From the NCBI GenBank assembly GCA_017478185.1, contig JAFVEA010000009.1, forward strand, positions 261,264 through 325,263: 64,000 nucleotides of DNA, read 5' to 3'. The stretch is from Clostridia bacterium. GTDB lineage: Bacteria; Bacillota; Clostridia; Christensenellales; UBA1242. The position numbers were made by a program, and so were the translations under genes. The notes below the pieces were generated by a model. The model searched no databases and had not been told where the DNA came from. It saw only the letters and a list, made by a program, of their open reading frames with translations. Of the stretch, positions 1,599-33,450 are shown piece by piece. Numbering within the stretch: position 1 is the first letter of the stretch; each line of letters opens with the position of its first letter.

Positions 1599-1599
1599 T

Positions 1600-2328: not shown

Positions 2329-2336
2329 AAAAATAC

Positions 2337-2365
2337 TTGACAACCACAAATTTGTGATATATAAT
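2337..2365 (+). promoter_or_regulatory. sigma-A type promoter (TTGACA-17-TATAAT) with internal palindrome CACAAATTTGTG
   Basis: Consensus hexamers with a 17-nt spacer, reading toward the zinc-ribbon/sigma-like genes. Confidence 0.5.
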
Positions 2366-2475
2366 ATAGACAATCGTATTCCACTTACGATAAACTAATG
2401 AAAAGGGAAAAATTATGTATTTTGCAAAAAAAGTAACAAAAAAAACTTAAAAATTTAATAAAAAAGGGGGAATTT

Positions 2476-2649
2476 ATGGAAAATTGCAAACAATACAAAT
2501 TAAAATTCAAATGTCCGGTATGTTCAAACTTTATGAAAATGTTTTTACATAACAGTTCAATTTCAGGACAATGCCCAGTGTGTAAAGCGGTAATTTGTAG
2601 CAAACAAATTTCCTCAAAAGAAAAATTATTAAAAATAAAGAAAGCATAA
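2476..2649 (+). CDS. small zinc-ribbon protein (57 aa, not in ORF track)
   Basis: My own translation is MENCKQYKLKFKCPVCSNFMKMFLHNSSISGQCPVCKAVICSKQISSKEKLLKIKKA. It has two CPVC pairs and an AGGGGGA SD 5 nt upstream. The listed antisense ORF 2385-2675 looks spurious. Confidence 0.5.
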   Translation: MENCKQYKLKFKCPVCSNFMKMFLHNSSISGQCPVCKAVICSKQISSKEKLLKIKKA

Positions 2650-2845
2650 TTTAATACGAAAGCGTTTATAGGCAAAGTAAAGGTCTGGCTGAAACAGTGC
2701 CCAAGGATAAATCCTTCTCACTACCTATAAATAAGGTTCATGTATAAGGGAAAGTTCATCTTAAACCTCTATGAACAGAAGTTCCAATAATTTGGGATTT
2801 TTGTTTGTAGAGGTTTTTTTAATTAAAAAAGAAAAGGAGATAAAA

Positions 2846-3181
2846 ATGATTCAATTAGCAAGTATAAGAAAAGACTTAAAATCAATTAGATATTATTATT
2901 CAAGGAAAGAGGTTTTTGATGCTGTAACTGGAGAAGTTAATCAAAATACAATTATGGAGAAAGTTAGACTTTATAACTTTTTAATAGCAGGAGCGACACC
3001 ACAACTTTATGATGTCTATGTTTCTTTGTATGTCAAGAGTTTAACACAAGAAGGACTTGCTGAAGAACTTGGGTTTACTCCAGAATATATTCAAAAACTT
3101 AATAAAAGATTATTAAAATATCTTCAAAAGCGACTTACTGAAGAACAAGAAAAAAAGGAGGAACAGTCATGTGCAAATTAA
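2846..3181 (+). CDS. sigma-70 region-4-like / ArpU-type transcriptional regulator
   Basis: LTQEGLAEELGFTPEYIQKLNKRLLKYLQKRL is a region-4 type HTH. I moved the start to the ATG after AAGGAGA. Comparable in size to Tn916 Orf7-like and phage late regulators. Confidence 0.5.
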   Translation: MIQLASIRKDLKSIRYYYSRKEVFDAVTGEVNQNTIMEKVRLYNFLIAGATPQLYDVYVSLYVKSLTQEGLAEELGFTPEYIQKLNKRLLKYLQKRLTEEQEKKEEQSCAN

Positions 3182-3414
3182 AAGAAATGCTTTTAGGAGC
3201 AACTAATGTTTACAGAACAAAAGATTTTATTGTAAAGCAATGTATTAACATTAAATATAATAAAGAAGAGAACAATGCATTAGTCAGCAATGATACATAT
3301 ATTGCAAGAAATAAAACTCGTGATAAAGAATATCAAGAGATTTTTAAAGATAGAAAAAATCTTAACGGAAGAAGATTAAAATCATCAATGTTTGCAAGAA
3401 CTTATATAGACTAA
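3169..3414 (+). CDS. hypothetical protein
   Basis: 81-aa ORF overlapping the previous stop, followed by a terminator. Confidence 0.45.
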   Translation: MCKLKEMLLGATNVYRTKDFIVKQCINIKYNKEENNALVSNDTYIARNKTRDKEYQEIFKDRKNLNGRRLKSSMFARTYID

Positions 3415-3420
3415 AAAGAG

Positions 3421-3444
3421 ACAACCAAATTGGTTGTTTTTTTT
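3421..3444 (+). terminator. Rho-independent terminator
   Basis: ACAACCAAATTGGTTGT hairpin followed by a T-run. Confidence 0.7.
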
Positions 3445-3445
3445 G

Positions 3446-3532
3446 TTATCTCCAAAAAACGTGATTTTTGACACCCTTTTTGACACTTTTTTGGAGATAA
3501 AATTTCTAAATCTGCCACTTTTTTGGAGATAA
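3446..3532. repeat. iteron-like short repeats (TTTTTTGGAGATAA x2 direct + 1 inverted; TTTTGACAC x2)
   Basis: TTATCTCCAAAAAA at 3446, TTTTTTGGAGATAA at 3487 and 3519, TTTTTGACAC at 3465 and 3477. Confidence 0.5.
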
Positions 3533-3582
3533 GCTTATTTGGGCTAAGTATATGTAAAGTTTTGATTTGTTTAGAAATTACT

Positions 3583-3645
3583 CATATTTGTTTGGTTTTT
3601 GTAAGGATAAAGTTTCTGGTTTTTCTGCGATTCTTACTATAGAAT
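3583..3645 (+). promoter_or_regulatory. promoter-like element copy C (CATATTTGTTTGGTTTTTGT ... AAAGTTTCT-N22-TAGAAT)
   Basis: The 20-mer is identical to the reverse complement of 1893-1912. It lies upstream of the 3828-9959 operon. Confidence 0.4.
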
Positions 3646-3827
3646 GTGGGTGTAACAAAAACAAGGCAGACAGAAGAACTTGACATAACAAAGTAAGTGG
3701 CCACCTTTGTTAGAAGTTAATGGATAGTATATCTAAAAAAGACCTTTTGAATTTTGTTACAGACAACTTAATAGCTGTGTTATCGGCATATCGGACACTT
3801 TAAAAAATCTAAAAAAAGGAGACTAAA

Positions 3828-4094
3828 ATGGCAAGAGAACAATTTAGAGAAAGAAATTGGAAAGTCCCTAATAAAAGAGCAAAAGATTTCGTTGATGAAC
3901 TTCGCTCTAAAAATCATATGCACGGAGATAAAGAAGGCAAAAAGCTTACTGATTATGAAGCAGGATTCCGTAGTGGATATCTTTTGAACCAATCAGACCG
4001 TGCTGGACTTTACAAGTACATTCAAGCTATCGGAGCGGGAAAATCTAAATCCGAAGCAAAAAGACTTTCTAAGATTATTGGAAAGCACAGATAA
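3828..4094 (+). CDS. small basic hypothetical protein
   Basis: 88-aa ORF with AAGGAGA SD. Lys/Arg-rich, no TM segment. Confidence 0.55.
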   Translation: MAREQFRERNWKVPNKRAKDFVDELRSKNHMHGDKEGKKLTDYEAGFRSGYLLNQSDRAGLYKYIQAIGAGKSKSEAKRLSKIIGKHR

Positions 4095-4120
4095 TTTTTA
4101 AATAAAAAAGGAGATAAAAA

Positions 4121-4468
4121 ATGAACAAGATAAACAAAATTATGGTTGAGAGAGAACCATTCCAGAAAGATGGAAAAAACTATTTCTCATATTTTATAAA
4201 AGGAACAGTTAGAGGAAAAGACATTCGAGTTCTTATAACTCCACCAGACAAAGGTGGTTGGCAAGTTCTTGACATTGTTTTTGGAGATGCTAATGAGGCA
4301 GAACTTGAACTTAAACCTTATGAAATGAAAAATGAAGCAACAGGAGAGGTTATTAAGGGAAATTCTTTTGCTGTTAAGTCTGTTGACGAAAATGGCGAAG
4401 TTTATGAATGTAAAATTAAACCTCTAAGGTCTTCAGATAAAATGCTCTTAAATATGCTAACTAAATAA
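4121..4468 (+). CDS. hypothetical protein, candidate ssDNA-binding (gene-V position) / DUF961-like
   Basis: 115-aa ORF with AAGGAGA SD. Beta-rich, small, and placed before the structural genes. The function is inferred from position only. Confidence 0.3.
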   Translation: MNKINKIMVEREPFQKDGKNYFSYFIKGTVRGKDIRVLITPPDKGGWQVLDIVFGDANEAELELKPYEMKNEATGEVIKGNSFAVKSVDENGEVYECKIKPLRSSDKMLLNMLTK

Positions 4469-4477
4469 TTCAAATAA

Positions 4478-4508
4478 GGCATAGGTGAGTTTGCCTATGC
4501 CTTGTTTT
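4478..4508 (+). terminator. hairpin / attenuating terminator
   Basis: GGCATAGG-N8-CCTATGCC followed by TTGTTTT. Confidence 0.55.
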
Positions 4509-4532
4509 CTATTTTGAAAAAAGGAGGAAAAA

Positions 4533-6602
4533 ATGGCAATTACTGATTTTATTGTTGGTGCAGTTATTGGATTAGTTGTAGCTTTAATTGTCGTTCTCAT
4601 TCTTCAAAACACAGTGTTAAAAGGAAAAAACATGGCTCTTTTGTATGCTATTATGTTTATTCTTTTTGCTGTTGCTGGTGGATTTATTCAGAAATCAACT
4701 TTTTCAAAAGTTGAAGCTGCTGGTTATACGCCAACGCCTCAGGAGCAAATAAAAGATGTTACTGATGCTATTGGTGATAACTGGAAAAACACAAATGGTG
4801 GTTTTACTTTTGAACAAATTCAAAAAGCTCAAGAAGATAGTGAAGCGCCTTTTCATGATGACCAAATAATTAATCTTACTTGTTATGATTTTGGTTCATA
4901 TATTGTCTTTGGTTTTAAAGATGGTAGTAAATACCAAAATATGCTTTTCTATAAATCTAATGATGGGCTAATTTTGGATGGAATAATTAACAAACATATT
5001 GCGATACCAGGTGTGAAATGGTTTTTGGCTTATGATTTAAACACTTTTAAGTGGATTGACCATCAAGACCATGAACCAACTTACGAAAAAAATCACCACT
5101 GGCTTTGGGGTGATTATGACACACTTTGTTCAATGTCTAGAAGCATTCCACAATTCCTAGAATATAGTGGTTATGCACTAACAAACAAAGATGAAACATT
5201 TAAGTATTGCTTTAAAAACATTGCTAATCTTACAGGTAAAAATGCAACTTCATATTTTATTAAGTTTGGAGATGTTGAGTTAATTGGAACGAATGCAACT
5301 GGATATACAAAAATAAATGGTTTTTACAACTATTTATATGAACAAATCAAAGGTGAGCAATATAACACAACAAAACTTATTGATGGTTCGCAATGTTTGT
5401 GTTTGCCAATTCCACAGGACTTACAAAGGAATTATCCAATAAGTCCAAGTAAGAAAGCTGAATATGGTAACAAAGATTATTATGGTGTTTATCGACTAAA
5501 CATTGCAGTTAATCTTAGTTTCAAACAGGGTAGTAATTCACTTACTTCAACTGTTAAGAATGAAGAATATGTTAACACTTTAAAGAACGATAGAAATTAT
5601 CAAGAACAAGTTGCTGTTGAAAAAATAACACCAGCAACAATATATTCAAAGCTAGATCTATCTTTTGTGGATGAAAGACAAAGTGATTTATCACAAGTTG
5701 ATTTACTACAAAATCCAGTTAAAATCACATTCACTTGCTCAGATAGCAGTCAAACAAAGGTTGTATTGATTGATAATATTGCAAAACTTAATAGTGGACT
5801 TACACTTTTATTATCTAAAAATGTTACATGGAATTATTTGATTGAAAGTGAAAAGCTGATTTTTGATAATTTCAGAGGCTCATTTACGATAAAAAGTGAT
5901 GTAACTAATATGTCTATGTCTTATTATTATCTAAACAATTATACTATTGCATCTGTTGGGTTAAATCCAGTAGGCACAATAGACACAAGTGAGATTGATT
6001 TACTCAATAATCCAGTAAAGATTATTCTTTCAAATGATGACCACACTTATCAATTTAGTTTTGATAGTAACAGTGATTTGAATGTATATAAGAATTTGCT
6101 TGTTGAAATGGGAACATATAACTACACAATTCTTTCTAAACAACTAATTTTTGCAAGTGTTACTGGAACTCTTACAATCACAACAACAGATAAAGTAATG
6201 CTCTTTAATTATACACTTGGAGTTAAAGAAGCATTAAGTTTTAATGTTTCACTATATAAATACAGCACAACAAACAATCAATTCTATTTGTATAGTGATG
6301 CATCAAATGTAACTCTTATTAGAGATACATTATCAAGTGCAAAAATTTATGTTGTAAACTGTGTTATTTACGATAATGATGGTCGTATTATGGAGAACTT
6401 TAATCATACTCATCAAAGTACTGGAACTTGTTCTGCTAGTTGGAATGCGAGTCATTTAGTTGCTGGGCAAACATATACTCTTCAACTTAGATTCACAGAC
6501 CAAAACGATTCTACGAAAACATATTTATCTGATATAACAACATTTACATTTCAAAACAATTACGGGTATAGGGTAACTTATACTGCAACAAGAAATAATT
6601 AA
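4533..6602 (+). CDS. large membrane-anchored protein (two N-terminal hydrophobic helices, beta-rich ectodomain); candidate adsorption/minor coat protein
   Basis: 689 aa. The N-terminus is MAITDFIVGAVIGLVVALIVVLILQ followed by MALLYAIMFILFAVAGGFI. No recognisable catalytic motif. Confidence 0.6.
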   Translation: MAITDFIVGAVIGLVVALIVVLILQNTVLKGKNMALLYAIMFILFAVAGGFIQKSTFSKVEAAGYTPTPQEQIKDVTDAIGDNWKNTNGGFTFEQIQKAQEDSEAPFHDDQIINLTCYDFGSYIVFGFKDGSKYQNMLFYKSNDGLILDGIINKHIAIPGVKWFLAYDLNTFKWIDHQDHEPTYEKNHHWLWGDYDTLCSMSRSIPQFLEYSGYALTNKDETFKYCFKNIANLTGKNATSYFIKFGDVELIGTNATGYTKINGFYNYLYEQIKGEQYNTTKLIDGSQCLCLPIPQDLQRNYPISPSKKAEYGNKDYYGVYRLNIAVNLSFKQGSNSLTSTVKNEEYVNTLKNDRNYQEQVAVEKITPATIYSKLDLSFVDERQSDLSQVDLLQNPVKITFTCSDSSQTKVVLIDNIAKLNSGLTLLLSKNVTWNYLIESEKLIFDNFRGSFTIKSDVTNMSMSYYYLNNYTIASVGLNPVGTIDTSEIDLLNNPVKIILSNDDHTYQFSFDSNSDLNVYKNLLVEMGTYNYTILSKQLIFASVTGTLTITTTDKVMLFNYTLGVKEALSFNVSLYKYSTTNNQFYLYSDASNVTLIRDTLSSAKIYVVNCVIYDNDGRIMENFNHTHQSTGTCSASWNASHLVAGQTYTLQLRFTDQNDSTKTYLSDITTFTFQNNYGYRVTYTATRNN

Positions 6603-6616: not shown

Positions 6617-7825
6617 ATGGATACAGTTAAAAATGTATTTTTAAGTATTGGATGTGTGGCTTTTGCTTTTGTTGTAGCTCTTTGTGTTTTAATGTGTGTT
6701 CCTTCAACAAGAACTGGGATATACAGAATGCTTAATGTTGCATCAATAGGTGAGCAAACACAAATTGCAGATGAAAAAACAGAGCTTTACATTCAAACAC
6801 AAACATATAGAGTTCAGCTTGAAAGTTTGAATCAAGAAAAATCAAGAATTGAACGGGAGCTTGAACGTTTGCAAGAAGATTATGATGAAGGTGTTGCTAT
6901 GCTTGCTGAATATCAAACAACAATAACAAATCTTAATCAGGAGCTTGCAGATGCAAACAATGATAACAATAACTTGCAAAATCAAATTGTAGGGCTTAAT
7001 GTTAGTATTCAAAATCTAAACAACCAAATTGATGGTTATGTTTCACAAATTGATACACTTAACAATGACCTTAATGATTTAAATGTTCAATATGATTCTT
7101 TATATTCTCAATTAGAGTTTATAACTCAACAAAAAGAGGATTTAATTAGTCAAAATACTATTCTTTCAAATGAGGTTTCTCATTTAAATAATCATATTGT
7201 TGGTTTAAATAATTCAATTTTTGACCTTGAGAATAGAATTCAAACTCAAAATGATAGAATTATGTCTTTAGAGGACACAATTTCAGTACTCAATATGGAG
7301 ATTCAAGACTTGAATGAACAACTTTGGCAATATCAAAGTGAACCATTAGTTATAACAAGACATGATGAATTTAATGTTTTGTGTGCAAGTCGTGTTGAAA
7401 ATGAATTACCTTGTTGGGATGCTGCTAATTCTTTTGATGTTGAGGATGAGTTCGTTAGAACTGGTTATCAAATCAAAAATGAATGGCTTAGTAAATATTC
7501 TTTATTAAATGAGAGCATTCAACACAGTTTTGAGCTTGGTTATAATCCTATTTTGCAATATTATGTGTCTGTTGTCGCAAGCTCAGGAAATTACAAAGCA
7601 GACGAGGATGTTTTCGTTCTTGAAAGAAGATTTGAACCAGAATACACATTCTCTGTTGATGGAGCAATCGATGATGAGGTTATGAGTATTGAAGATTTCG
7701 AAAATGCTTTAGTAGATGATTGCAATTATTTATTTACTGTTGAAATTGCAAATAGTTGGAATTATGAAACAGGTAGAGTGGCTAATTTGAGTGTTCATGT
7801 TAGGGTTTATACAGAGTGGCAATAA
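6617..7825 (+). CDS. N-terminally anchored coiled-coil protein
   Basis: 402 aa. TM segment VFLSIGCVAFAFVVALCVLMCV, then about 200 aa of N/Q/L/E heptad-like sequence and a globular C-terminus. Confidence 0.6.
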   Translation: MDTVKNVFLSIGCVAFAFVVALCVLMCVPSTRTGIYRMLNVASIGEQTQIADEKTELYIQTQTYRVQLESLNQEKSRIERELERLQEDYDEGVAMLAEYQTTITNLNQELADANNDNNNLQNQIVGLNVSIQNLNNQIDGYVSQIDTLNNDLNDLNVQYDSLYSQLEFITQQKEDLISQNTILSNEVSHLNNHIVGLNNSIFDLENRIQTQNDRIMSLEDTISVLNMEIQDLNEQLWQYQSEPLVITRHDEFNVLCASRVENELPCWDAANSFDVEDEFVRTGYQIKNEWLSKYSLLNESIQHSFELGYNPILQYYVSVVASSGNYKADEDVFVLERRFEPEYTFSVDGAIDDEVMSIEDFENALVDDCNYLFTVEIANSWNYETGRVANLSVHVRVYTEWQ

Positions 7826-8649
7826 CTATAATATTTGCACCACCAAGAACTGGTAAAACTTCATTTATGTCTTATTTGCTTAATTGTTATGCTTTTGATA
7901 AAGAAAGAAACAAGAGTATGCGTCAGGAAATTCAGCAGAAAAATCAAAATGGTTTTAAGCTTAGCATTCCAAAGCACTGTGTTTCTGCGAATTATAATTT
8001 AACTTTTTCAAAATTTGGTTATAGTAAAAGGCATAACAGATTGATAAATCCATTTAAGTTGGGTTTTAAGAATGATTTTGTGAAAACTCATTTTAATTAC
8101 CCATATGAAGTTATTGGAATTACTGAAGCCCAAAAATACTTAAATAGTAGAATGGCCATGTATTTTCCAGAGTGGCAGTCCAGGTGGTATGAACAACATG
8201 GACATAATCATTTAGAGATTTTATTAGACACTCAAAGACCGAATTTAATTGATGTGAATATTCGAGAAATTTCACAATTTATTGAAATACTTAACTTAAA
8301 AATATGTTATAACAAGTTTGGAAAGATTAGTAAAATGAAATGGACTATTAGGAAAATTGATAATTCAAGTCTATTTGAGAAATATATGTCTAGTGGCAAG
8401 AAAGATAAAAGTTGTTATAAACAAGAAACTGTTGTTGCTCATTTTGATGTTTTCTCAATTTACTCAAGTGAATGTTGTAAACCAAAGTTTTATGACGGAC
8501 ATTTTGAAGAAGATTTTGATATTCAAGAAAGCAAAACAACAGAAGAAAGCTTTTTAGGGTTTGTTAAATTCTTAGATGAGTTCGATGATGAAATGCCGGA
8601 AGGATTTTATCAGCCTAAAACTGTAAAGAAGAAGAAAGATGAACTATAA
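7816..8649 (+). CDS. Zot-like (filamentous-phage pI-type) P-loop NTPase
   Basis: Walker A APPRTGKTS, Walker-B-like VIGITEAQ, and the Zot-family block HGHNHLEILLDTQRPNLIDVNIRE (compare HRH-G-D-TQ). Overlaps the upstream stop. No TM helix seen. Confidence 0.7.
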   Translation: MAITIIFAPPRTGKTSFMSYLLNCYAFDKERNKSMRQEIQQKNQNGFKLSIPKHCVSANYNLTFSKFGYSKRHNRLINPFKLGFKNDFVKTHFNYPYEVIGITEAQKYLNSRMAMYFPEWQSRWYEQHGHNHLEILLDTQRPNLIDVNIREISQFIEILNLKICYNKFGKISKMKWTIRKIDNSSLFEKYMSSGKKDKSCYKQETVVAHFDVFSIYSSECCKPKFYDGHFEEDFDIQESKTTEESFLGFVKFLDEFDDEMPEGFYQPKTVKKKKDEL

Positions 8650-8938
8650 CAAGAATAAACTTATCAACATAACCCTAGACAAGTATTATGAAACTTTTTC
8701 ACACACACTAGATACATATGATTTTGTACCAGAAAAGTACAATACAAAAGTATGTAAATATATTTTTAAGAATATGAAAAAATCCTTTAAGAAGATTGAT
8801 AAGGAAGATAGGATTTATCAGCGAATGCTTAAGCGTAAAGAAAAAGAAAAGCAAAAAGCATTAAAGCCAAAGCAAAGTTTCTTCCAAAGATTATTTAAAA
8901 GAAATAATCAAACAAATTCTAATTTAAAGGAGGATTAA
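8639..8938 (+). CDS. hypothetical basic protein
   Basis: 99-aa ORF overlapping the Zot-like stop. Lys-rich C-terminus. Confidence 0.5.
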   Translation: MNYNKNKLINITLDKYYETFSHTLDTYDFVPEKYNTKVCKYIFKNMKKSFKKIDKEDRIYQRMLKRKEKEKQKALKPKQSFFQRLFKRNNQTNSNLKED

Positions 8939-8939
8939 A

Positions 8940-18087: not shown

Positions 18088-18096
18088 AAATAAAAT

Positions 18097-18260
18097 CCTC
18101 CTTGCCTTTTTGGCAGCAAAAACACAATAGTTATGCTGGATTTTTTGCAAAGGTTTGCCTTTGGACACGAATTTAAGGTTTTATTTTAGTGTTTTTAATG
18201 AGTGCCTTTGCAAAATAAGACAAATAACTATATAAGAGCCAAGACAAAAAGGTAAGGAGG
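18097..18260. repeat. long imperfect inverted repeat (about 165-nt hairpin), paralog of 24805-25028
   Basis: Arm CCTCCTTGCCTTTTTGGC...ATAGTTAT...TTTTGCAAAGG versus reverse complement of the other arm CCTCCTTACCTTTTTGTC...ATAGTTAT...TTTTGCAAAGG. Confidence 0.65.
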
Positions 18261-18322
18261 CAGCCAATCCAGAAAACAGTTGTTTATACAAAAAACTTTT
18301 TTGTTATAAAGTTGTTGGTATT

Positions 18323-19207
18323 CTATTTTTTATCTTCGCTAAATCTATGTATTTTTGTTTTTCTTGATTTCTGCGTTCCACGAGCATAGACTATTTCTGG
18401 ATAACCAAACCCTACAATTAAACCTGTGTAATGATCTTTTGGAATATTAAGTAATTCCCTTGCTTCTGGAACAAGTTCGTTTAGGACTTCACTTGAATAG
18501 GACATTATTATTGTTCCAAGACCAAATGAATTGGCGAGTATGTCAAAATATGCTGTTGCGATGTTACAATTGTTTTTACTATCCTCCGCCCACTTTCCCA
18601 CACATTTTTCATGCGCAATAAATAGGTGTGGAGCCCCACAAAATAAAAGGTCTCCATTGCGGACAGTTTTTTCAGATTCTTTCATCTTTTTATAATAAAA
18701 ATCGCTAAAACTATGAGTGTATATATGCTGATGAGCGAGTTCATCCATTTTTGTATAAGCTATTTTTTGAATCTGTTTAACTCTTTCTTTGTCGTCGATA
18801 ACAGTGTATTCAGTGTTGCAAGCATTTCCACCAGTTGGTGCATTCTCGAGTGCTGATAAAATTTTATCTATAATTTCTGGCTCAACATTTTTGTCCAAAA
18901 ATCTTCTGCAAGACCTACGGTATTTAATCAATCTCTCCATTTGTTCGCCAAGATTTTTGTCCGGTGGTAAGCAAGAATTTTCTGGCTTTTTGTTAAAAAT
19001 TGAAATGGCACCCACAGGGCAAACAGCAAGACAATGTTCACATCTCCAGCAACCACGCCAGCCAAATCTTTCAAAAGGCTTTATTGATGGATAGCCCTGT
19101 GCATCTATTTCAATAACCATCCCAGAGCAGACATTACGACATTTCCCACACTTTATACATTTAGTTTTATCTACAATAAAATTACATCTATTTGATATAT
19201 CTTCCAT
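18323..19207 (-). CDS. ferredoxin-domain (2x[4Fe-4S]) nitroreductase-family protein
   Basis: CIKCGKCRNVC and CEHCLAVCP clusters followed by a nitroreductase-like domain (RRSCRRF). Confidence 0.75.
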   Translation of the reverse strand: MEDISNRCNFIVDKTKCIKCGKCRNVCSGMVIEIDAQGYPSIKPFERFGWRGCWRCEHCLAVCPVGAISIFNKKPENSCLPPDKNLGEQMERLIKYRRSCRRFLDKNVEPEIIDKILSALENAPTGGNACNTEYTVIDDKERVKQIQKIAYTKMDELAHQHIYTHSFSDFYYKKMKESEKTVRNGDLLFCGAPHLFIAHEKCVGKWAEDSKNNCNIATAYFDILANSFGLGTIIMSYSSEVLNELVPEARELLNIPKDHYTGLIVGFGYPEIVYARGTQKSRKTKIHRFSEDKK

Positions 19208-19210
19208 AAA

Positions 19211-20161
19211 TTACTCCATTGTTACAATAATTTTTCCATCAACACCTTTTTCTTGTGCTTTGAGTGCTTCTTTTATTTCACTAAACTTAAAGTTTACCCC
19301 AATAAAAGGCTTAATTTTTGCGTTATCTAAAAGTTTAAAAATATTGTCTATATCTTTCTGTGTTGGATAATTTGAGAAAAATCCAGTTAAGTATGTTCCA
19401 TTTGGAATTTCTTTTATTGGATCAAAATCATTAAGAGCAAAAACTCCACCAAGAATACCAGTATTGCAACAAACTCCACCTTTGTTTAGACATTGTAAAC
19501 TATCTCGGAGTGTTTTTGGACCAATAAGTTCAAGAATTTTATCTGTTTTAATGTGCTCATCAAGCTTTCCTTTATTATCTAAAAGACATTCGGCACCAAG
19601 GTCCGTGACAAAGTGCATTTTTTCTTTTTTGTGTGTTGTGCCAATAACTTTTGCTCCAACTGCTTTTGCAAGTTGAATGGCTGCATAGCCAAGAGCACAA
19701 GTTGCTCCACGAATAAGCAAAGTTTCTCCTTTTTTTAATTGTAAGCACTCAAAAAGAGAGCCATAAGCAGTGAAAAATGTTTCTGGAATAGCTGGCAAAT
19801 ACTTATTTTCCATTTTTGAATTTATATGGAAAACATTTTTAACTGGAAGTAGAGCATATTCTTCATAACTTCCATTAAAGTTTCTACCCATTCCGCCCAT
19901 AAGAGCGCAAACCTTGTCTCCAATCCTAAAATCATCATCTAAACTTTGTTCAATAATTCCCACACATTCTATTCCTGGAACTATTGGTTTTTGTATATAA
20001 TCTTCTTGAATTTCATTTTTTCTAAGTATTAGTTCAGAGTGATTAAGACCAAACCCCAAAACTTTAACAACGACCCAGCCTTTTTTTGCTTTTGGCTTTT
20101 CAATTTCAGATAAAAATATATCATCACTATTTGTGATTTTTGTTAGCACCACTGCTTTCAT
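19211..20161 (-). CDS. MDR-family zinc-type alcohol dehydrogenase / quinone oxidoreductase
   Basis: GLNHSE, GIECVG, and the nucleotide-binding IRGATCALGYAAIQLAK. Confidence 0.8.
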   Translation of the reverse strand: MKAVVLTKITNSDDIFLSEIEKPKAKKGWVVVKVLGFGLNHSELILRKNEIQEDYIQKPIVPGIECVGIIEQSLDDDFRIGDKVCALMGGMGRNFNGSYEEYALLPVKNVFHINSKMENKYLPAIPETFFTAYGSLFECLQLKKGETLLIRGATCALGYAAIQLAKAVGAKVIGTTHKKEKMHFVTDLGAECLLDNKGKLDEHIKTDKILELIGPKTLRDSLQCLNKGGVCCNTGILGGVFALNDFDPIKEIPNGTYLTGFFSNYPTQKDIDNIFKLLDNAKIKPFIGVNFKFSEIKEALKAQEKGVDGKIIVTME

Positions 20162-20276: not shown

Positions 20277-20537
20277 TTAAAATTCTAATTTGGAGCTTTC
20301 AATTCCAATGAGAAGTCCTGTTTTAAAACCATTTACATATTTTTCACAAGCAAAGTTATCTAATTTTTCACCATATAATTGAATATATTGTTCAAAGATG
20401 TCTTTTTGGTTTTCATTTAAGAAACTTTTTATTAGTTCATAAAGTTCATTTTCTTTTGGATTTTGATTTAACATTGCTTTTGATTTTCTTGATATTTCAT
20501 CTATGTTTCCATAATAAAGTTCTTCAATTATATTCAT
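20277..20537 (-). CDS. hypothetical protein
   Basis: 86-aa ORF overlapping the upstream stop. Confidence 0.5.
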   Translation of the reverse strand: MNIIEELYYGNIDEISRKSKAMLNQNPKENELYELIKSFLNENQKDIFEQYIQLYGEKLDNFACEKYVNGFKTGLLIGIESSKLEF

Positions 20538-20854
20538 AGGATTGCTCCTTTATCTGGTATATAAATTTTATCTGCAACTTTTATCGCTTTATAGTTTTTT
20601 CCATCTATAATTTGTTCAGTATATTCTGGTTTTCCATCTGTGTTTGCTCTTAGGAAAATGCTTTCATTATCTTCTTTTGCTGGCTCAATGTTAATATCAA
20701 TCATATTTTCAAGTCTGCCGACTTCGATAATATCAACATCTTTCTTGATTAAGTATGAGCTAAATTCCCATAGTTTTTCAAATTTTCCATTTGAATCTAC
20801 TATAAAGCAAACATCATCTTCTTTATAATATCCGGTTATTCTGTAGTAATTCAT
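20534..20854 (-). CDS. hypothetical protein
   Basis: 106-aa ORF in an operon with the PcfJ-like gene. Confidence 0.5.
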   Translation of the reverse strand: MNYYRITGYYKEDDVCFIVDSNGKFEKLWEFSSYLIKKDVDIIEVGRLENMIDINIEPAKEDNESIFLRANTDGKPEYTEQIIDGKNYKAIKVADKIYIPDKGAIL

Positions 20855-20865
20855 TTTTTATCTCC

Positions 20866-22188
20866 TTATATTGTTATTTGTTTTATTTGATTATTTGCGT
20901 AGGGCAGCCAAATTTTGTTTATATATTCAAGTATCTGTTCATTTGGCTGTGAGTTGTGTATTGCATAACATTGCAGTATTTTGTGTGTTTTTGGGTCATA
21001 TTCTATTGTTACAAGAGGAATTGTTGGTTGTTCTTTTAACCTTACAAAGAATATTAAACTTTCTTCGTTTACAAATTTCTTATCATAACCCATATGACCA
21101 ACACAGTGATGAAGAGCTTCACCTTCTTTTGTGAGTTCTTTTGGAGAATGTGCAATCAAAGTTATATAGTTTTCATTTAACTTTCGTTGCATAATCTTAT
21201 ATTTATCTGCAATGATTTTAAAGTTTTTGCAAAATTGTTTCATTTGTTTTTTATCTTCTTCCATTTTTTTGTTATGATATTCTTCAGTTCTAATATTGTG
21301 CCAATAACTTAAATCATGGGGCATAAGGTTTTTAGGTAAACTCATATCAAGTCCAAGATATTCACAAGCTGTTAGATAGTCATCATAAACCTCTTCATAC
21401 ATATTTAGTTTTGTTATGTATTTATAAAACTTTTCCACATTTCCACAAAAAGCAGTTTTTATATGTGTATAACAAGGTTTTTTCATAAAAGGTCTTAAAA
21501 AATATTCAAACTTTTGAATTTCCATTAAGTTTCGATTTTCTTTATATGCTTTCATTATTGCAGAAATATAATACGAATAGTTGCTTAACTCATTTGAATG
21601 GTTAATAATCCATTTTCTAAACTTTTTATCTTTTGCAAGCTTATTAAGTATTGTTTTAGACATACAATATTTTTCTAATCCAAGTTTTAATAGATATTCT
21701 GCTTGAGGATATTTTTCATACATTCTCAAATATTTTAATTCGTTGGTAAATTCTAGTGATGTAACTTGGCTATATTTGTATTTCTCTATTTTTAAAGCAA
21801 GTTCTGGATTTATGTTTGTTATATATGGTATAAAGAAATATTTATCATCAGCATAACCCCAGTCATCACTTTCAAACCAAGTTTGATATTTTGATAATCC
21901 TTCAGCATACCACCCAACAGAATATCCAGCAATTTGTGTGAATTTTATATCTTTAACATAACAAATCTTTCCATTATCGCAATGGATTACAACTTGTTTG
22001 CAATACCATTTGTTGTATTTGTTTTTAACAGCAACAGTTATTTGCATTAAGTGTTTTTTCCAAATAGCAAAGTAGTTATAAAATCTAACACGATTAAATT
22101 TGTCTTTGTGGTGTTTTTTATCTATACTTTTTATCTTTTTTATGATATATTTTGGAATAGGTTTAATTATTGTTTCATCAACTTTCAT
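20866..22188 (-). CDS. PcfJ-like protein
   Basis: C-terminal EGEALHHCVGHMGYDKKFVNEESLIFFVR matches the PcfJ HCVG signature. Follows a PcfK-like gene, as in conjugative elements. Confidence 0.65.
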   Translation of the reverse strand: MKVDETIIKPIPKYIIKKIKSIDKKHHKDKFNRVRFYNYFAIWKKHLMQITVAVKNKYNKWYCKQVVIHCDNGKICYVKDIKFTQIAGYSVGWYAEGLSKYQTWFESDDWGYADDKYFFIPYITNINPELALKIEKYKYSQVTSLEFTNELKYLRMYEKYPQAEYLLKLGLEKYCMSKTILNKLAKDKKFRKWIINHSNELSNYSYYISAIMKAYKENRNLMEIQKFEYFLRPFMKKPCYTHIKTAFCGNVEKFYKYITKLNMYEEVYDDYLTACEYLGLDMSLPKNLMPHDLSYWHNIRTEEYHNKKMEEDKKQMKQFCKNFKIIADKYKIMQRKLNENYITLIAHSPKELTKEGEALHHCVGHMGYDKKFVNEESLIFFVRLKEQPTIPLVTIEYDPKTHKILQCYAIHNSQPNEQILEYINKIWLPYANNQIKQITI

Positions 22189-22198
22189 TTTTATCTCC

Positions 22199-23014
22199 TT
22201 ATAATATTTTTAAGTTATTGTCTAATAGTTTTTGAAGAATATCTATTTTTGTATTTTCAAGTTCAGTTTTTCTTTTTTCATAAATAGTTTCATTGTTATC
22301 TTCAAGGACAAGAAGGGTAGATTGTTTTTGAAGTGTTTCAAAATATTTGTCTTTAAGATGAATAGGGAAGCCAGCAAGTTTCACTGGTTCAACAAAGCCA
22401 AAGTCTTTTGATGTTAAAACAAGATTTAGTATGCTTGAAATCTTTTCAGCATTGTTATCATAAGCTTCATAAAAATCTCCAAGTTTAATAAGAGTTATTT
22501 TATCTGAGTTTTCATCTTGTGTTTTGGCATATAATTTGTAATAATCTGGAATTTTTTCTTCAGCTTGTTTTAGTTCTTCATTTATTTTTGGCTTATCTAA
22601 GTCCATGAAATCAAAAAGTGTTTGTTGAGGTGTTTGTTTTTTAACTTCAACTTTAGGTTCAATCTTTGGAGCAACCTTTGGTTTTGGCTTTTCTTCTTCG
22701 TAGATACTGCCATCAAGATTATAAAGTGTTCCAATAATCGAATCTTCTTCAAAGTAGTGTATCGCCCAACCAAAAACAGTTGAATCTTCTATGCAAGCAT
22801 AACTTGCTCCTTTTTCTGCAAGTTTCTTAGCTTCATTATTTGCATATTGGAAAAATCCAGTTAAATTTTTCTTATTAACAAGTTCTTTTTTGTTTTTTGT
22901 GGTTTTCACACCCAAATTTATCTTATTTGCAAGATTTTCACTAGCATTTTTTTGCAAATAATCTTTTATTATTTCTTGTTCTTTGTTTTTTGTTTCCAAA
23001 TTTAATTCAATCAT
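22199..23014 (-). CDS. PcfK-like (AcrIIA9-family) N-domain fused to a MutS domain-I-like C-domain
   Basis: N-terminal IIKDYLQKNA...STVFGWAIHYFEEDSI resembles PcfK/AcrIIA9. C-terminal ITLIKLGDFYEAYDNNAEKISSILNLVLTSKD...LAGFPIHLKDKYFETLQKQSTLLVLED aligns with the E. coli MutS mismatch-binding domain (GDFYE ... MAGIPYHAVENYL). Confidence 0.55.
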   Translation of the reverse strand: MIELNLETKNKEQEIIKDYLQKNASENLANKINLGVKTTKNKKELVNKKNLTGFFQYANNEAKKLAEKGASYACIEDSTVFGWAIHYFEEDSIIGTLYNLDGSIYEEEKPKPKVAPKIEPKVEVKKQTPQQTLFDFMDLDKPKINEELKQAEEKIPDYYKLYAKTQDENSDKITLIKLGDFYEAYDNNAEKISSILNLVLTSKDFGFVEPVKLAGFPIHLKDKYFETLQKQSTLLVLEDNNETIYEKRKTELENTKIDILQKLLDNNLKIL

Positions 23015-23041
23015 AATAATTCCTTTTAATAAAAAGAAGCC

Positions 23042-23260
23042 CTAAAAAGGACATCTTCTTAATAATCTTTTTACTTCTGATTTTCTCATTTTGAAGATAG
23101 TAAAATGTGGATTTTTAACAATTCGCAGTGTTTTTCTGTTTTTAATAGTTTTGTTTTTCAAATTTTCTTTTTCAAAACAAGCAAGCTGATAATCATTTGT
23201 GGTTATGTATTTATGATATTTGTTTGCACTTTGTTTTTGGTAACATAATTTATAGTTCAT
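23042..23260 (-). CDS. hypothetical basic protein (72 aa)
   Basis: ATG overlaps the upstream stop (TAATG) behind AAGGAGGA. This is shorter than the listed 93-aa ORF. Confidence 0.45.
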   Translation of the reverse strand: MNYKLCYQKQSANKYHKYITTNDYQLACFEKENLKNKTIKNRKTLRIVKNPHFTIFKMRKSEVKRLLRRCPF

Positions 23261-23676
23261 TATGCAGTCCTCCTTATTCCACCACCAAAACTTTGAATTC
23301 CAATAGTTCCAAATTCGCTGCAATCATCACAAGTTTTGTTCCAGACATATGCAAAAGCATAAAAATTTGATTTATTTTGTTGTTCAAGTAGAGTATCCCA
23401 TTCTTCTGGATAATCTGTTACAATTAAAAAATCATAACATTCACCAAATTCAGTGAACTCATGTGTTATTGCATAAACTGTGCAATTATAAGTTTCTTCA
23501 ATTTGTTTTTGCTTTTCTAATAATTCTTCATCTTGATAAGTCCAAAATCCAGCAAATTGCTTATAAAAGCAAGTGTCATTTTCTTTCTCAAAACCTTCTA
23601 TATAAGGTTTGTAAATATCTAATTGTTTTAAAAGCTCAATGGCTTTTTCTTTTCTTTGTTCTATATTAGTGTTCAT
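23260..23676 (-). CDS. hypothetical acidic protein
   Basis: 138 aa, Glu/Asp-rich. Confidence 0.5.
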   Translation of the reverse strand: MNTNIEQRKEKAIELLKQLDIYKPYIEGFEKENDTCFYKQFAGFWTYQDEELLEKQKQIEETYNCTVYAITHEFTEFGECYDFLIVTDYPEEWDTLLEQQNKSNFYAFAYVWNKTCDDCSEFGTIGIQSFGGGIRRTA

Positions 23677-23691
23677 TTTTTAATCTCCTTT

Positions 23692-24309
23692 TTATAACAT
23701 AGTTTCTTGCCAAGGGTCTATAAAATTACAGTCTCTTTTTGTAAATCCCTTTAATGCTAGTGTTGTTTTTAAATTATTATCGTCAAATGATATTTCATCA
23801 AAAGCCCAAATTCCAACTTGTTCTTTATTTATTCCATAATAATCTCCACCACCATATTCGTTCCCAATGGCTGTTAGTAGTGAAAGAGGATGCATACACC
23901 ATTCTTTAATACTATTTGTTTCAATATATTCTTGCATATTCAAATATTCTTGTTTTGTCCAGTTTATAAGTAGCATCTTGCTGGTTTCAAATTGTTTTAA
24001 AATAAGTGATTTTTCTTTTCTGTTCCAAGCAATTTCGTGTAGCTTATATGCTTGTTTCAAACTTAAGTTTGGGTTGTGTATATCTTTAATGTCTATTTGG
24101 TTTACATAATCACCAACCCAAGCAACTTTCATAGGATTTTTATAAATAATGTTTGAAAAACTTTCCATAGTATAATTGCCAATCCAACTATGTTCAGTAA
24201 GTTTTGCTAGCATATATTCTGGTTTGCTGGCTTGATTTGTTTTGATTGATCTATCGTAAACAGTGTATTTTCTATCTTTGTATGTTAAAATGTTATAATA
24301 TTGTCCCAT
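23692..24309 (-). CDS. hypothetical protein
   Basis: 205-aa ORF with AAGGAAG SD. Confidence 0.5.
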   Translation of the reverse strand: MGQYYNILTYKDRKYTVYDRSIKTNQASKPEYMLAKLTEHSWIGNYTMESFSNIIYKNPMKVAWVGDYVNQIDIKDIHNPNLSLKQAYKLHEIAWNRKEKSLILKQFETSKMLLINWTKQEYLNMQEYIETNSIKEWCMHPLSLLTAIGNEYGGGDYYGINKEQVGIWAFDEISFDDNNLKTTLALKGFTKRDCNFIDPWQETML

Positions 24310-24326: not shown

Positions 24327-24740
24327 TTAATATCTTTTTAAAGCTTTTTGTAGTCCATGTTTTAGATTTTTGTGTTTTTCAATTTCTTCCATTGTTAAAT
24401 CAAGAGCATCTAGTGTTTCATCAAGTGAATAGGTGATACAGTATTCGTGGTTAGCTAATTCATCTCTAAACATTTGATAAATATAACCATTTCCAGTTTT
24501 GTCATTATCAATTTCTTGTTGATGCTCTTGTTTGTGCCTTTTAAAAGTGTTCATAACCCAATCATAATCACTTTTTTTGATGTAACAGCCACTACCTATG
24601 GTACAAATAGCTTGTAAATTGTCTTTTTCTAAACCAAATTTTTCCATCATTTCATCAAATTGTTTATCGCTATAAGCAAAACCCAATGGCAGTTCATTAA
24701 CTTCCTTTTGATGTTTTTGTCTTAGTTCATAGTAATTCAT
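24327..24740 (-). CDS. hypothetical protein (first gene of the operon)
   Basis: 137-aa ORF with AAAGGAGA SD. Preceded by a mini-ORF and a long hairpin. Confidence 0.5.
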   Translation of the reverse strand: MNYYELRQKHQKEVNELPLGFAYSDKQFDEMMEKFGLEKDNLQAICTIGSGCYIKKSDYDWVMNTFKRHKQEHQQEIDNDKTGNGYIYQMFRDELANHEYCITYSLDETLDALDLTMEEIEKHKNLKHGLQKALKRY

Positions 24741-24804
24741 AATTTTTCTCCTTTTCTATTAATAATATTTTTAAAACCAAAAAGCGTTAAAAAACATAAA
24801 TCAC

Positions 24805-25028
24805 CTCCTTTTGGGCTTTTTGGCAAGGAAACAAAAAGTCATAGTTCGGCTATTTGTTTTTGTGATTTAAAGTTTAGGGTAGGAGTCAATGAAAAAGAAA
24901 AAATATTATTATAAATAAAGAAAAAGACCAGGTTAAAAACCTAGTCTTTAAAAAGTGTATTAAAATATTTTTTCCGTTTACTCCTACGAGAAATATGACA
25001 AACTGTTTCCCAAAAAGCCCAAAAGGAG
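24805..25028. repeat. long imperfect inverted repeat (about 224-nt hairpin)
   Basis: The outer arms are a perfect 19-nt repeat, CTCCTTTTGGGCTTTTTGG / CCAAAAAGCCCAAAAGGAG. Inner matches are GAAACA, GTCATA, GTAGGAGT and GAAAAAATATT, with an apical hairpin AAAGACCAGG-N7-CCTAGTCTTT. Confidence 0.7.
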
Positions 25029-25119
25029 AACATAAAACTTATTTGTTTTTTATGTGAAAATGAAGACAAAATACTATTTTTTTGTTATAATGTGAGTGAT
25101 AATATAAAGGAGTTTTGAG

Positions 25120-25704
25120 TTGATTAAGGCTTTTATTAAGGAAATTCGAGAATCTTTGGATAAAGAAATGTATATGTCGGCTTTAACGTTGACACTGATT
25201 TTGCCTGATATGTGTGGTCAAGTTGAATATTCAGGTGAAAAGCCTAAAGAAAGGTATATAAAATGGTTTGATAATTTTGTGGCTTCTAGTATGAGACATC
25301 GGTATGATGATGATAAAATCCCTTATGTAAGTGGGCAAATTGCCTGGGATTTAAGAAATAATGTAATACATGGTGGTGATCCAGATGTAAATAGTAAGGA
25401 AAGTGATATACAAGATTTTAAACTTTTAGTTCAAGAAAAAGGAAGATCGGCTTATGCGGGAACTAGTACATGTGTAATGACTAAAATTATAAATGGGCAA
25501 GAGATTGTGGAACATAGATCGATTACTATAGCCCTGAGAGATTTTTGTAATACAGTTTGTTGCTGTGTTAATGCGTACTATAAAAAAAATATAGATAAAT
25601 TCACTTTTAAGTATAAGGTTGTAAATATAGATGATATGTCGGCAAAACTGATGGTTGGTGTTAAAAGAGAGGTGTATAAAAAGGATGAAGAAAATGAAGG
25701 ATGA
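25120..25704 (+). CDS. HEPN-motif protein (194 aa)
   Basis: AWDLRNNVIHGGDP contains Rx4H. Predicted to be helical. TTG start. Confidence 0.4.
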   Translation: MIKAFIKEIRESLDKEMYMSALTLTLILPDMCGQVEYSGEKPKERYIKWFDNFVASSMRHRYDDDKIPYVSGQIAWDLRNNVIHGGDPDVNSKESDIQDFKLLVQEKGRSAYAGTSTCVMTKIINGQEIVEHRSITIALRDFCNTVCCCVNAYYKKNIDKFTFKYKVVNIDDMSAKLMVGVKREVYKKDEENEG

Positions 25705-26968
25705 GATAAAATGTGGTAAAAAAGATGAAAATCTTTTTACTTGGATTAATGGAAAAGTTCAAAGTATTCAAAAAAAATGGCTTGTGATTTTGTTATCAAT
25801 TGTAATTAATCTGCTGATGTGTTTTTTATTGGCTGGATTTTATTTTTTGCCATTTATTAATTATAAATCTTTAGCTTTAAAAATAATTTTTGGGGTTATT
25901 TGGATATTTGGAGCTGTGTGTATGGCACTTATATATTTCTTTAATAAGAAATCGGATAAAGAGCATTTATTGGCTCATATTATAACAACAATATTTTTTG
26001 TTATAACTTTTGGTTTAATTTTTGTTCATAATAATATATTTTCATTTGGAACAATCTCTTCAGTTCTAACAATAATATTGTTTATCTTTTTTCTATTAAT
26101 TGGGGTCATTAGTTTATTAGTTGTTGCTAAAAATGATAAAAAGATATTTATTCAAGCATTAATACTGTTTGTGGTAGGCTTTTTGTTGTTTTGCTTTTTT
26201 TATGGTGCATTAATAAACACTTCAGTTGATGAGAGTATTAGAAAGTATATAGCTATTGCTAGCTTTTTTGCTTTGGTTGCATTAATACTTGGATTTTACA
26301 TGAACTATTTATTTAAATCGGATAAATATAGGTATACTTACATTTTCTCAGGGTTGTTTTTGGGGATAATCGTTATTTTATTTTTTATTTCTTGGATTAT
26401 ACATTATTTTGATAATAGTATTTCAATTATGGGAGTGTTTGTTCAGTTTTTTGCTTCGGCTATAGCTGGAGGATTAACAGTTTTTGGTGTTGCCTTAACT
26501 ATTAAGAATGGTGAAAAAGAAAGAAAATATGAAGAAAAAAATAAAATTAAGCCATATTTAAAAAATTTTTATATGACAAATTCAGATATAGATAATGTTA
26601 CTAATAAAAGTATAGAAATAAATAAAAACAAGAATTATAAGAAACAATCGTTTAAGATGTATCTACAAAATATAAGTGATGCAATAGCTATTATAAATGG
26701 ATTAGTTATTTATAATGAATACTATACTATTGGTAATATTGTATTGGAAAAGAATGCTAAAGTCCGAATAGATGTTGATTATTTTAAGGAAAAAATTGAA
26801 ATTTTGAAAGAAATAAAAATTATTGCATCTGATATACAGGAGAATTATTATGAGTTTGATATGTTATCTGACAATATTTGTGAAAAATCCCAATGTGAAA
26901 ATATTTCAATAGGTTTACCCGTTGAAATAAAAAATGCTGATGCATTAATAAATAAAAAAATCAACTAA
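25655..26968 (+). CDS. polytopic membrane protein (about 9-10 TM) with soluble C-terminal domain
   Basis: Successive hydrophobic helices between residues 40 and 290, then a 150-aa hydrophilic tail. An alternative start at 25685 (MKKMKDE) overlaps the upstream gene. Confidence 0.6.
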   Translation: MVLKERCIKRMKKMKDEIKCGKKDENLFTWINGKVQSIQKKWLVILLSIVINLLMCFLLAGFYFLPFINYKSLALKIIFGVIWIFGAVCMALIYFFNKKSDKEHLLAHIITTIFFVITFGLIFVHNNIFSFGTISSVLTIILFIFFLLIGVISLLVVAKNDKKIFIQALILFVVGFLLFCFFYGALINTSVDESIRKYIAIASFFALVALILGFYMNYLFKSDKYRYTYIFSGLFLGIIVILFFISWIIHYFDNSISIMGVFVQFFASAIAGGLTVFGVALTIKNGEKERKYEEKNKIKPYLKNFYMTNSDIDNVTNKSIEINKNKNYKKQSFKMYLQNISDAIAIINGLVIYNEYYTIGNIVLEKNAKVRIDVDYFKEKIEILKEIKIIASDIQENYYEFDMLSDNICEKSQCENISIGLPVEIKNADALINKKIN

Positions 26969-27020: not shown

Positions 27021-27096
27021 TGGAGCTAGCGATCGGACTTGAACCGACGACCTCCTCGTTACCAACGAGGTGCACTACCGACTGTGCTACGCTAGC
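27021..27096 (-). tRNA. tRNA-Thr (anticodon GGT), CCA encoded
   Basis: Manual cloverleaf: GCTAGCG/CGCTAGC acceptor, anticodon arm CCTCG-TTGGTAA-CGAGG, T-arm GTCGG-TTCAAGT-CCGAT. Confidence 0.85.
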
Positions 27097-33221: not shown

Positions 33222-33374
33222 TTTCAATGAACAAAAATTAGTGGAAACAAGCTTGTTTGTTTTTATGAGTTTTGTGAAATTGATTGAATTTTGCAAAAAT
33301 TCAAACTTCGGAGCAGGTTCAAGTCATTTTTTATAAAATAAAAAATCCATAATTCATTCGAATTATGGACTGCT

Positions 33375-33450
33375 TGGCTCCTCAAGCAGGACTTGAACCT
33401 GCGACCTGCCGGTTAACAGCCGGATGCTCTACCAACTGAGCTATTGAGGA
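33375..33450 (-). tRNA. tRNA-Asn (anticodon GTT)
   Basis: Cloverleaf with anticodon arm TCCGG-CTGTTAA-CCGGC, CCA encoded. A terminator hairpin lies at 33343-33372. Confidence 0.85.

Follow-up and report, generated by a model that had tools for sequence, protein, structure and literature searches.

The window, i.e. the whole 64-kb stretch of DNA that was analysed, is chromosomal, has about 29% G+C and carries many tRNA genes; its bases from ~200 to ~27,000 look like an integrated element. This region comprises a tyrosine integrase gene (216-1598) accompanied by a small Xis-like ORF, a gene for a sigma-region-4-like protein (2771-3181) and, on the + strand, genes for a Zot-type P-loop protein (7816-8649; phrog_197, E=4e-7) and for an HUH Rep protein of the G2P type (8940-9959; PF23343), followed on the same strand by a defence cargo (10257-15087) of AbiTii and a type III restriction-modification pair (N6_N4 methylase and ResIII helicase). 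In a related locus, L136, the equivalent region encodes a DpnII system, Mrr, GmrSD and an AAA_15 protein. A tRNA-Thr gene is located at 27021-27096, and no att repeat was found, the longest match between the tRNA-Thr region and the integrase end being 9 nt. That a Zot-like protein adjoins the G2P-type HUH Rep may point to a module for ssDNA transfer that is inovirus-like or of some other, unknown kind. The large proteins encoded next to Zot and Rep (689 and 402 aa) matched no family, the 402-aa protein yielding only weak coiled-coil matches, and locus L097 has unrelated genes at this place.

On the - strand, opposite to that of the Rep gene, runs a conserved gene island. Its first intact gene encodes a DUF7659 protein (24327-24740) and has its own SD (24748-24753); the remainder of the island (20277-24309) consists of two or three unknown genes, a gene for a PcfK-like protein fused to MutS domain I (22199-23014), a PcfJ gene (20866-22188), a 106-aa gene (family F7) and a DUF6809 gene. 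The fusion of PcfK with the mismatch-binding MutS domain I, also present in the related loci L081 and L095, is an unusual domain combination for an anti-restriction island. Between the conserved island and a downstream gene of family F8, zinc-dehydrogenase and Fe-S nitroreductase genes are located (18323-20161, - strand), which are not found at this place in L081.

The hairpin resides in a 379-bp intergenic region between the DUF7659 gene on one side and a divergent gene for a 194-aa protein, p194 (25120-25704), on the other. Here, an inverted repeat that is perfect over 19 nt (22 nt at 95%), with its arms at 24805-24823 and 25010-25028, closes a bulged hairpin of 224 nt; the arm sequence has only two matches in the window, compared to 0.03 expected. 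Folded as ssDNA, the 224-nt unit reaches -46.4 kcal/mol on the - strand and -47.0 kcal/mol on the + strand (z = -9.1 and -7.6, respectively), values that were equalled in none of 200 shuffles, and the folds show further helices inside the hairpin and, at its apex, a stem-loop of 12 bp (24923-24949). Accordingly, both the perfect outer repeat and the long bulged stem-loop with inner matching blocks and an apical hairpin, on which the original prediction was based, are real features of this locus. Towards the chromosome, the hairpin is followed by a variable cargo slot at the edge of the element (25120-26968, + strand), which holds p194 (phrog_18591) and p437 and extends to a chromosomal NTP-transferase gene; in L081 the same slot (725-5629) is occupied by genes for an SLFN-like helicase and a MazG-like protein and by two unannotated ORFs.

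A family of related hairpins in gut Clostridia

The closest relative of the window is the metagenome contig L081, in which the hairpin is nearly unchanged and the DUF7659 protein is 96% identical. In the more distant loci L084, L001 and L007, a recognisably related hairpin heads the same operon, where other genes may precede that for DUF7659. These first five sequences already displayed compensatory changes in 30 of the 70 predicted pairs. A covariance model was built from them and searched against the loci collected by then, where it yielded full-length matches in 22 loci, all of them on the operon strand and upstream of the operon; the element in the window was matched at 24799-25031 (- strand) with 212.7 bits. 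A pattern scan of metagenomes returned at least 120 matches, mostly in human-gut assemblies, and about half of the loci examined proved to be true members. The final family comprises at least 56 distinct members from Clostridia genomes and gut metagenomes, in which the hairpin is co-oriented with, and directly abuts, the genes that it heads, usually an ArdA/DUF7659/PcfK/PcfJ island. In the alignment of 56 members, 86.4% of the cells are paired, compared to 69.8% after shuffling and about 44% when the partners are slid, and 61 of the 70 pairs have changes on both sides; none of 500 shuffles reached any of the observed measures. As the alignment was fitted to the structure of the model, these pair counts lean towards the structure, while the margin is still large. 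The covariance search of other genomes that had originally been suggested with two copies from the window was productive when based on the five sequences above, and the arms do co-vary among homologs.

No related sequence turned up in Rfam or in collections of plasmids and phages: Rfam gave nothing relevant at either the gathering or an E-value threshold (best E=0.05, far below gathering), blastn (word 11) of positions 24741-25119 gave no match among 72,556 plasmids, a blastn search of a phage collection gave no match to the hairpin, and we found no description of this hairpin family in the literature. The pattern scan of IMG/VR matched a single contig, suggesting that the host elements are not typical predicted viruses. 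Nothing was learned from folding 450 nt of upstream sequence of each of 80 DUF7659 homologues or from scanning for strict self-complementarity by Smith-Waterman; the family hairpin is positioned at the head of the operon and not beside the DUF7659 gene. The hairpin belongs to a widespread, previously undescribed family found in mobile elements of gut Clostridia.

The members share a common anatomy. Read in operon sense, the element has an anti-SD (CCTCC/CTCCTT) at its 5' base and AAGGAGG at its 3' base; in most members, the AAGGAGG represents the SD of the first gene, with the gene starting 4-10 nt past the element. The 5' arm contains the nearly invariant GTAGCA..TCTCG..GT(A/C)AACGG, and the 3' arm carries the invariant CGTTGACT, followed by an insertion of ~30 nt (up to ~150 nt in L136), TGC.aC and TGCCGAAAGGCAAAA. 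In the window, the 5' outer arm (25010-25028, - strand) includes the anti-SD CTCCTT and pairs with 24805-24823 in helix 1, which co-varies, whereas the 3' outer arm (24801-24823, - strand) ends with AAGGAGGTGA, the SD of the first operon gene in the relatives, here followed by only a remnant ATG. The anti-SD/SD helix co-varies across the family and frequently contains U.G pairs.

The apex of the hairpin resembles an intrinsic terminator on the operon-sense strand. In the window, this element (24913-24949, - strand) is composed of the 12-bp stem-loop, identified by a terminator scan at 24949-24923, and a T-run with the tail TTCTTTATTT. All 12 pairs of the apical helix co-vary in the family, and among its non-Watson-Crick cells in the non-redundant set, 56 G.T on the sense strand stand against 7 A.C. 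This G.T excess is the signature of an RNA hairpin and argues for a working terminator. In the other helices, the corresponding counts of G.T and A.C are 31/22, 15/28, 4/15, 17/5 and 9/5, so that the asymmetry in the main stems is mixed and the long stems do not appear RNA-like. Since the apical terminator precedes the 3' arm, a sense transcript would be expected to end before the 3' arm is made.

The genes headed by the hairpins form a mosaic island with a core of DUF7659, PcfK-like and PcfJ genes, and most of the other gene families have no Pfam match. ArdA is encoded in 8 of the 22 loci analysed first, and an orphan N6 methylase in three. Two co-oriented hairpins occur within one island in L022, L006 and L159. 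The window also has a second hairpin (18092-18261, - strand), which is short and degenerate and was matched by the covariance model with an E-value of about 0.1 only; it is of the same design, with an outer stem formed by CCTCCTTGCCTTTTT and AAAAAGGTAAGGAGG and, on the + strand, a degenerate TTTGCA-16-TATATA that resembles a promoter. This second hairpin directly precedes and heads the F8-family gene (17797-about 18087, - strand), a gene that comes first behind the hairpin in relatives and the true start of which is probably an ATG near 18087 rather than the GTG at 18168. Mini hairpins of ~185 nt are located between the genes for Rep and a serine recombinase in L194 (198-384, - strand) and L183 (5318-5502, + strand), indicating that the module is also used ahead of recombinase genes.

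The original prediction had regarded the hairpin in front of the DUF7659 gene as the second of a pair. The supposed first copy (about 1966-2139, + strand) had no match to the covariance model of the family at E<=1 and folds less stably (z = -4.3), and was therefore rejected as a homologue. It is a different bulged hairpin, flanked by the xis/int genes on one side and the sigma-like gene on the other, and its 3' arm contains a consensus TTGACA-17-TAAAAT on the + strand. A hairpin in a similar place is present in L097 at about 8206-8450.

A further proposal concerned a mini-ORF on the - strand (ATG TTT TTT AAC GCT TTT TGG TTT TAA, encoding MFFNAFWF; 24797-24771), which indeed lies behind AAGGAGGTGA as described. 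Its distance to the SD of the operon had been given as 24 nt; from its stop codon to the SD of the DUF7659 gene (AAGGAG, 24753-24748) there are 17-19 nt. A role of the Phe/Trp-rich peptide as a leader that controls expression by ribosome stalling would require a conserved uORF with conserved stalling residues, and this reading fails, as the mini-ORF is not conserved. A 2-nt deletion reduces it to MF* in L081, next to the gene for the 96% identical DUF7659 protein, and the mini-ORF is absent from the members beyond these two, in which the same SD and ATG open a real first gene. Thus, the mini-ORF of the window is most likely a relic start, the stump that remained after loss of the original first gene or genes.

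The promoter motif in the stem

Across the 56 members, the 5' arm carries a typical Gram-positive sigma-A promoter motif on the strand antisense to the operon, i.e. on the template strand. It consists of an A/T-rich upstream tract, a -35 region TT(G/T)ACT, a spacer of 16 nt (47/56) or 17 nt (9/56) and an extended -10 region, in which TG is present in 56/56 and is followed by T (51), A (56; A-11), C (53), R, A (46) and T (42 of the 56). The corresponding motif in the window, on the + strand, comprises TTTACT at 24977-24982 and TG-a-CAAACT at 24996-25004 (TG at 24996-24997, CAAACT at 24999-25004), compared to the family consensus TG-c-TACRAT; the -10 region of the window is thus weaker than that of the family. 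In duplex DNA this promoter, which by its sequence is intact, points outward and away from the operon, whereas in a folded template strand it would face into the operon. The gene upstream of the hairpin was scored in 39 cases and is divergent in 18, including p194 at 25120 in the window; in 12 cases the hairpin is preceded by the 3' end of a co-directional gene, and in nine there is no neighbour.

In the operon-sense 3' arm, the complement of the invariant TTGACT (24884-24889 in the window, - strand) would serve as the template side of the -35 duplex once the + strand is folded, and its TTGAC is kept beyond the need for pairing, with G at the third position in 39 of 42 members versus 55% on the other arm. 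From this TTGAC to its own '-10' partner there are 42-64 nt, so that it cannot be part of a linear promoter. A sense promoter starting from the invariant TTGACT was likewise considered and rejected: neither A-11 nor T-7 is present in the hexamers that follow it at 16-18 nt, and the TGC partner is the one 42-64 nt away. Another candidate, the sigma-70-like TTAACC-17-TATAAT at 24936-24908, was dismissed, as among L081, L084, L001 and L007 the TATAAT is retained solely in the near-identical L081.

The stem is imperfect at the -10 region. While A-11 itself is invariant, about half of the members have a mismatch opposite to it (pair 52-470); in the fold of the window + strand, A-11 to -8 (25000-25003) are unpaired within a 4x4 internal loop. 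The helix ends at the -10 region and is followed by an internal loop where the start site would fall. By sequence and fold, the stem hence reconstitutes -35 and -10 regions at promoter spacing with imperfections at -10, and by geometry and gene content the folded strand is the template of the downstream establishment and anti-defence genes. Transcription from the folded strand would be predicted to start past the terminator and the anti-SD, at 20-30 nt ahead of the SD; in the window, this zone of the putative transcript 5' end is 24817-24826 (- strand). In 34 of 42 members, the fold of the template strand is more stable than that of the sense strand when computed with DNA parameters. The difference in fold energy is partly an artefact of composition, as shuffles alone give -1.4 kcal/mol; after correction it amounts to -1.8 kcal/mol (p=0.003, the members not being independent), which may be taken as weak support for folding of the template strand.

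A possible promoter for the single-stranded state

Taken together, the best-supported reading, which we consider about evenly probable (roughly 0.5), is that the hairpin is an Frpo-like ssDNA promoter module with a built-in lock for the dsDNA state, formed by the terminator and the anti-SD clamp. Frpo/ssi ssDNA promoters serve as precedent (PMC9849209, PMC11541004, PMC12672017). It might be envisioned that the element becomes single-stranded after rolling-circle mobilisation by its HUH Rep, upon conjugative or phage-like entry, and that the operon template strand (the + strand of the window) folds. The folded 3' arm would then supply the non-template strand with the -35 region (TTTACT), the 16-nt spacer, the TG and the -10 region, with A-11 in the small internal loop, while the folded 5' arm would act as template, including the complement of the invariant TTGACT. 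Host RNA polymerase with sigma-A could start about 20-30 nt before the SD and run from the loop to the base into the anti-restriction/establishment operon, and the same RNA could also prime synthesis of the complementary strand. In the dsDNA state, the element would be without a sense promoter, the apical terminator would block read-through from upstream, and the anti-SD of any read-through RNA would pair with the SD, so that the operon would be off. The direction from the loop to the base into the genes is the geometry of Frpo (PMC9849209), and ardA is located behind repeated, co-oriented folded promoters in ColIb-P9 and F (PMC6294495, PMC12672017). Several features speak against an ssDNA promoter: unlike what is reported for Frpo, the promoter looks intact in the duplex and might simply serve the divergent neighbours, the -10 region of the window is weaker than the consensus, the wobble asymmetry of the main stems is mixed, and the template arm carries a bulge of ~30 nt, or up to ~150 nt, inside the spacer, which polymerase would have to tolerate.

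The original prediction, an Frpo/ssi-like ssDNA promoter in front of anti-defence genes, is thus upheld in part. The stems co-vary, a sigma-A -35 and extended -10 region lies on the template strand with its -10 mismatched or looped, and the operons of relatives encode ArdA and an orphan methylase. Conversely, homology to Frpo/ssi at the sequence level is lacking, the setting is an integrative Rep (HUH) element instead of the leading region of a plasmid, and the strand of the hairpins with respect to Rep varies. The Rep genes are about 50% identical between loci, and in seven loci (the window, L095, L097, L152, L146, L161 and L209) Rep and the hairpin operon are encoded on opposite strands. In three others (L183, L194 and L136), hairpins on the Rep strand head genes for sigma-like proteins, Rep and serine recombinases; L136 has hairpins on both strands, and in L204 two seem to be arranged back to back. 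In known rolling-circle systems, the mobilised strand has the polarity of Rep. If this applied here, the mobilised strand in the seven loci would be the template strand of the operon, as an ssDNA promoter needs. However, with seven loci against three, the orientation of Rep cannot fix the transferred strand, and no single transferred strand could serve every copy when some hairpins are on the Rep strand and others are not.

The latter arrangement would be explained if the hairpin were instead a control region of duplex DNA, in which the promoter drives the divergent neighbour or an antisense or regulatory RNA, the hairpin insulates at the RNA level by termination and SD sequestration, and the operon is activated otherwise, e.g. 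by antitermination or by the sigma-like protein of the element. The promoter is complete in the duplex form, the 18 divergent genes among the 39 upstream neighbours (p194 at 25120 being one of them) are in a position to be served by it, the apical helix has wobble pairs of the RNA type and the anti-SD/SD helix is rich in U.G, sigma-region-4-like proteins are encoded by the element, and a structured blocker of read-through has a precedent in EGeRS1 of pLS20 (PMC8708921). We nevertheless regard such a control region, the main rival, as unlikely. It gives no account of why a promoter arm of ~100 nt pairs with the distal arm (61/70 pairs co-varying), why TTGAC is invariant on the arm without the promoter or why the partner of A-11 is systematically mismatched, and it is these three features, i.e. 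promoter-arm covariation, invariant TTGAC and the mismatch at A-11, that favour the ssDNA promoter over an outward promoter. In addition, it is the 3' end of a co-directional gene that the promoter faces in 12 of the 39 cases, and internal copies are located between co-directional genes; the apical terminator keeps the two arms from sharing one RNA, the main stems have no G.U excess, and a conserved sense promoter was not seen in the family. A leader RNA acting in cis as riboregulator or attenuator, transcribed from an upstream sense promoter and possibly equipped with the Phe/Trp stalling mini-ORF, would fit a long structured region immediately 5' of genes with terminator and SD sequestration, as well as the position of the mini-ORF of the window behind a strong SD. 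Several observations tell against it: the mini-ORF is MF* in L081 and absent elsewhere, Rfam has no match, A.C is as frequent as G.U in the main stems, the apical terminator precedes the 3' arm, and the invariant TG-n-TAC with its fixed 16/17 spacing on the opposite strand would have no role in an RNA. We therefore consider a leader RNA highly improbable.

A folded promoter might also function solely as a single-strand origin (sso/minus-strand origin), at which polymerase would make a primer for the complementary strand while the position in front of genes is incidental. The host element has a G2P-type HUH Rep, RNA-polymerase-dependent sso and M13-type origins are folded promoters (PMC4595007), and Frpo is described as promoter and primer site in PMC12672017, which cites Masai and Arai. 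As the sole function this is decidedly improbable in our view, given that the promoter runs from loop to base and would send its RNA out into the genes, that the structure incorporates the SD of the first gene in nearly all members and the anti-SD co-varies with this SD, that several copies exist per element, each heading a gene set, and that the family consensus contains no conserved ssoA-type CS-6 (TAGCGT), nor did blastn find a match in 72,556 plasmids. It may, however, coexist with a function as ssDNA promoter.

Relation to known systems

When compared with the Frpo/ssi elements of IncF and IncI1 plasmids (Frpo1/2 of F, ssi of ColIb-P9, classes 1-3 of pESBL), the family is similar in that an imperfect hairpin of 200-300 nt rebuilds -35 and -10 regions in its stem, is located upstream of and co-oriented with establishment and anti-restriction genes (ardA, methylases), is repeated in one orientation per island and has a possible dual role as primer site. 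It differs in having no sequence similarity to them (by blastn against the 72,556 plasmids and by Rfam), in its Clostridia rather than proteobacterial hosts with an extended -10 (TGn) in Gram-positive style, and in its location on integrative Rep (HUH) elements instead of the leading regions of conjugative plasmids. Moreover, its promoter is intact but inverted in the duplex, whereas Frpo is reported to be inactive in dsDNA, an apical terminator and an anti-SD/SD clamp are added, and its polarity to the transferred strand is not uniform, as judged by Rep (seven loci versus three). Similarly, the sso elements of rolling-circle plasmids and ICEs (ssoA/ssoT/ssoU/ssoW; sso1 of ICEBs1) and the minus-strand origin of Ff phages are, as predicted for the family, folded ssDNA that serves as promoter for host polymerase; they are orientation-specific and tied to elements with an HUH Rep or relaxase. 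In contrast to sso, the family lacks an RSB/CS-6 consensus, with TAGCG being only sporadic (e.g. in L084), has the SD of a gene within the structure and several copies per element, and its promoter is predicted to fire from loop to base into genes and not to make a short primer inside the hairpin. The third system, EGeRS1 of pLS20-family plasmids in Bacillus, is likewise a conserved structured region of Gram-positive bacteria in front of the RBS of an establishment gene (ardC), has no detectable sense sigma-A promoter in dsDNA and blocks upstream read-through in an orientation-dependent manner, as would be predicted for the family. However, EGeRS1 has 2-3 times the length of the hairpin and is GC-rich and multi-branched, a promoter within its fold was not found by the authors, the T-strand of pLS20 is the non-template strand, and the hairpin has no blastn similarity among plasmids.

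To our knowledge, ssDNA promoters have so far been documented only on proteobacterial IncF/IncI plasmids. Tentatively, and at somewhat less than even odds, the family might thus constitute an unrecognised class of Gram-positive (Clostridia) ssDNA promoters, in which an inverted sigma-A promoter with extended -10 is combined with a terminator and an anti-SD clamp, so that ArdA-type anti-restriction islands, and in some elements also sigma, Rep and recombinase genes, would be expressed from the entering strand and be doubly locked in the duplex. For the question of how the expression of anti-defence genes is timed in Gram-positive elements, the hairpin family offers a concrete object of study: its consensus is clear, natural variants number at least 56, and both the start of the transcript and the effects of point mutations can be predicted precisely. 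In addition, the family is a marker of poorly known integrative Rep (HUH) elements of the human gut, which carry defence cargo (restriction-modification, Abi) along with anti-restriction islands, and the covariance model can be used to find such islands and new anti-defence genes.

Two further observations were made in the course of this work. Outside the element, positions 33313-33402 of the window contain a 43-nt imperfect palindrome, the right arm of which overlaps the 3' end of a tRNA-Asn gene (33375-33450); this palindrome might represent a terminator or else an att-like trace left by a different element. In L097, a umuD/umuC-like pair (Peptidase_S24 and IMS; 8586-10474) is located beside the integrase of a related element, reminiscent of plasmids on which anti-defence islands are flanked by umuDC operons (PMC11541004).
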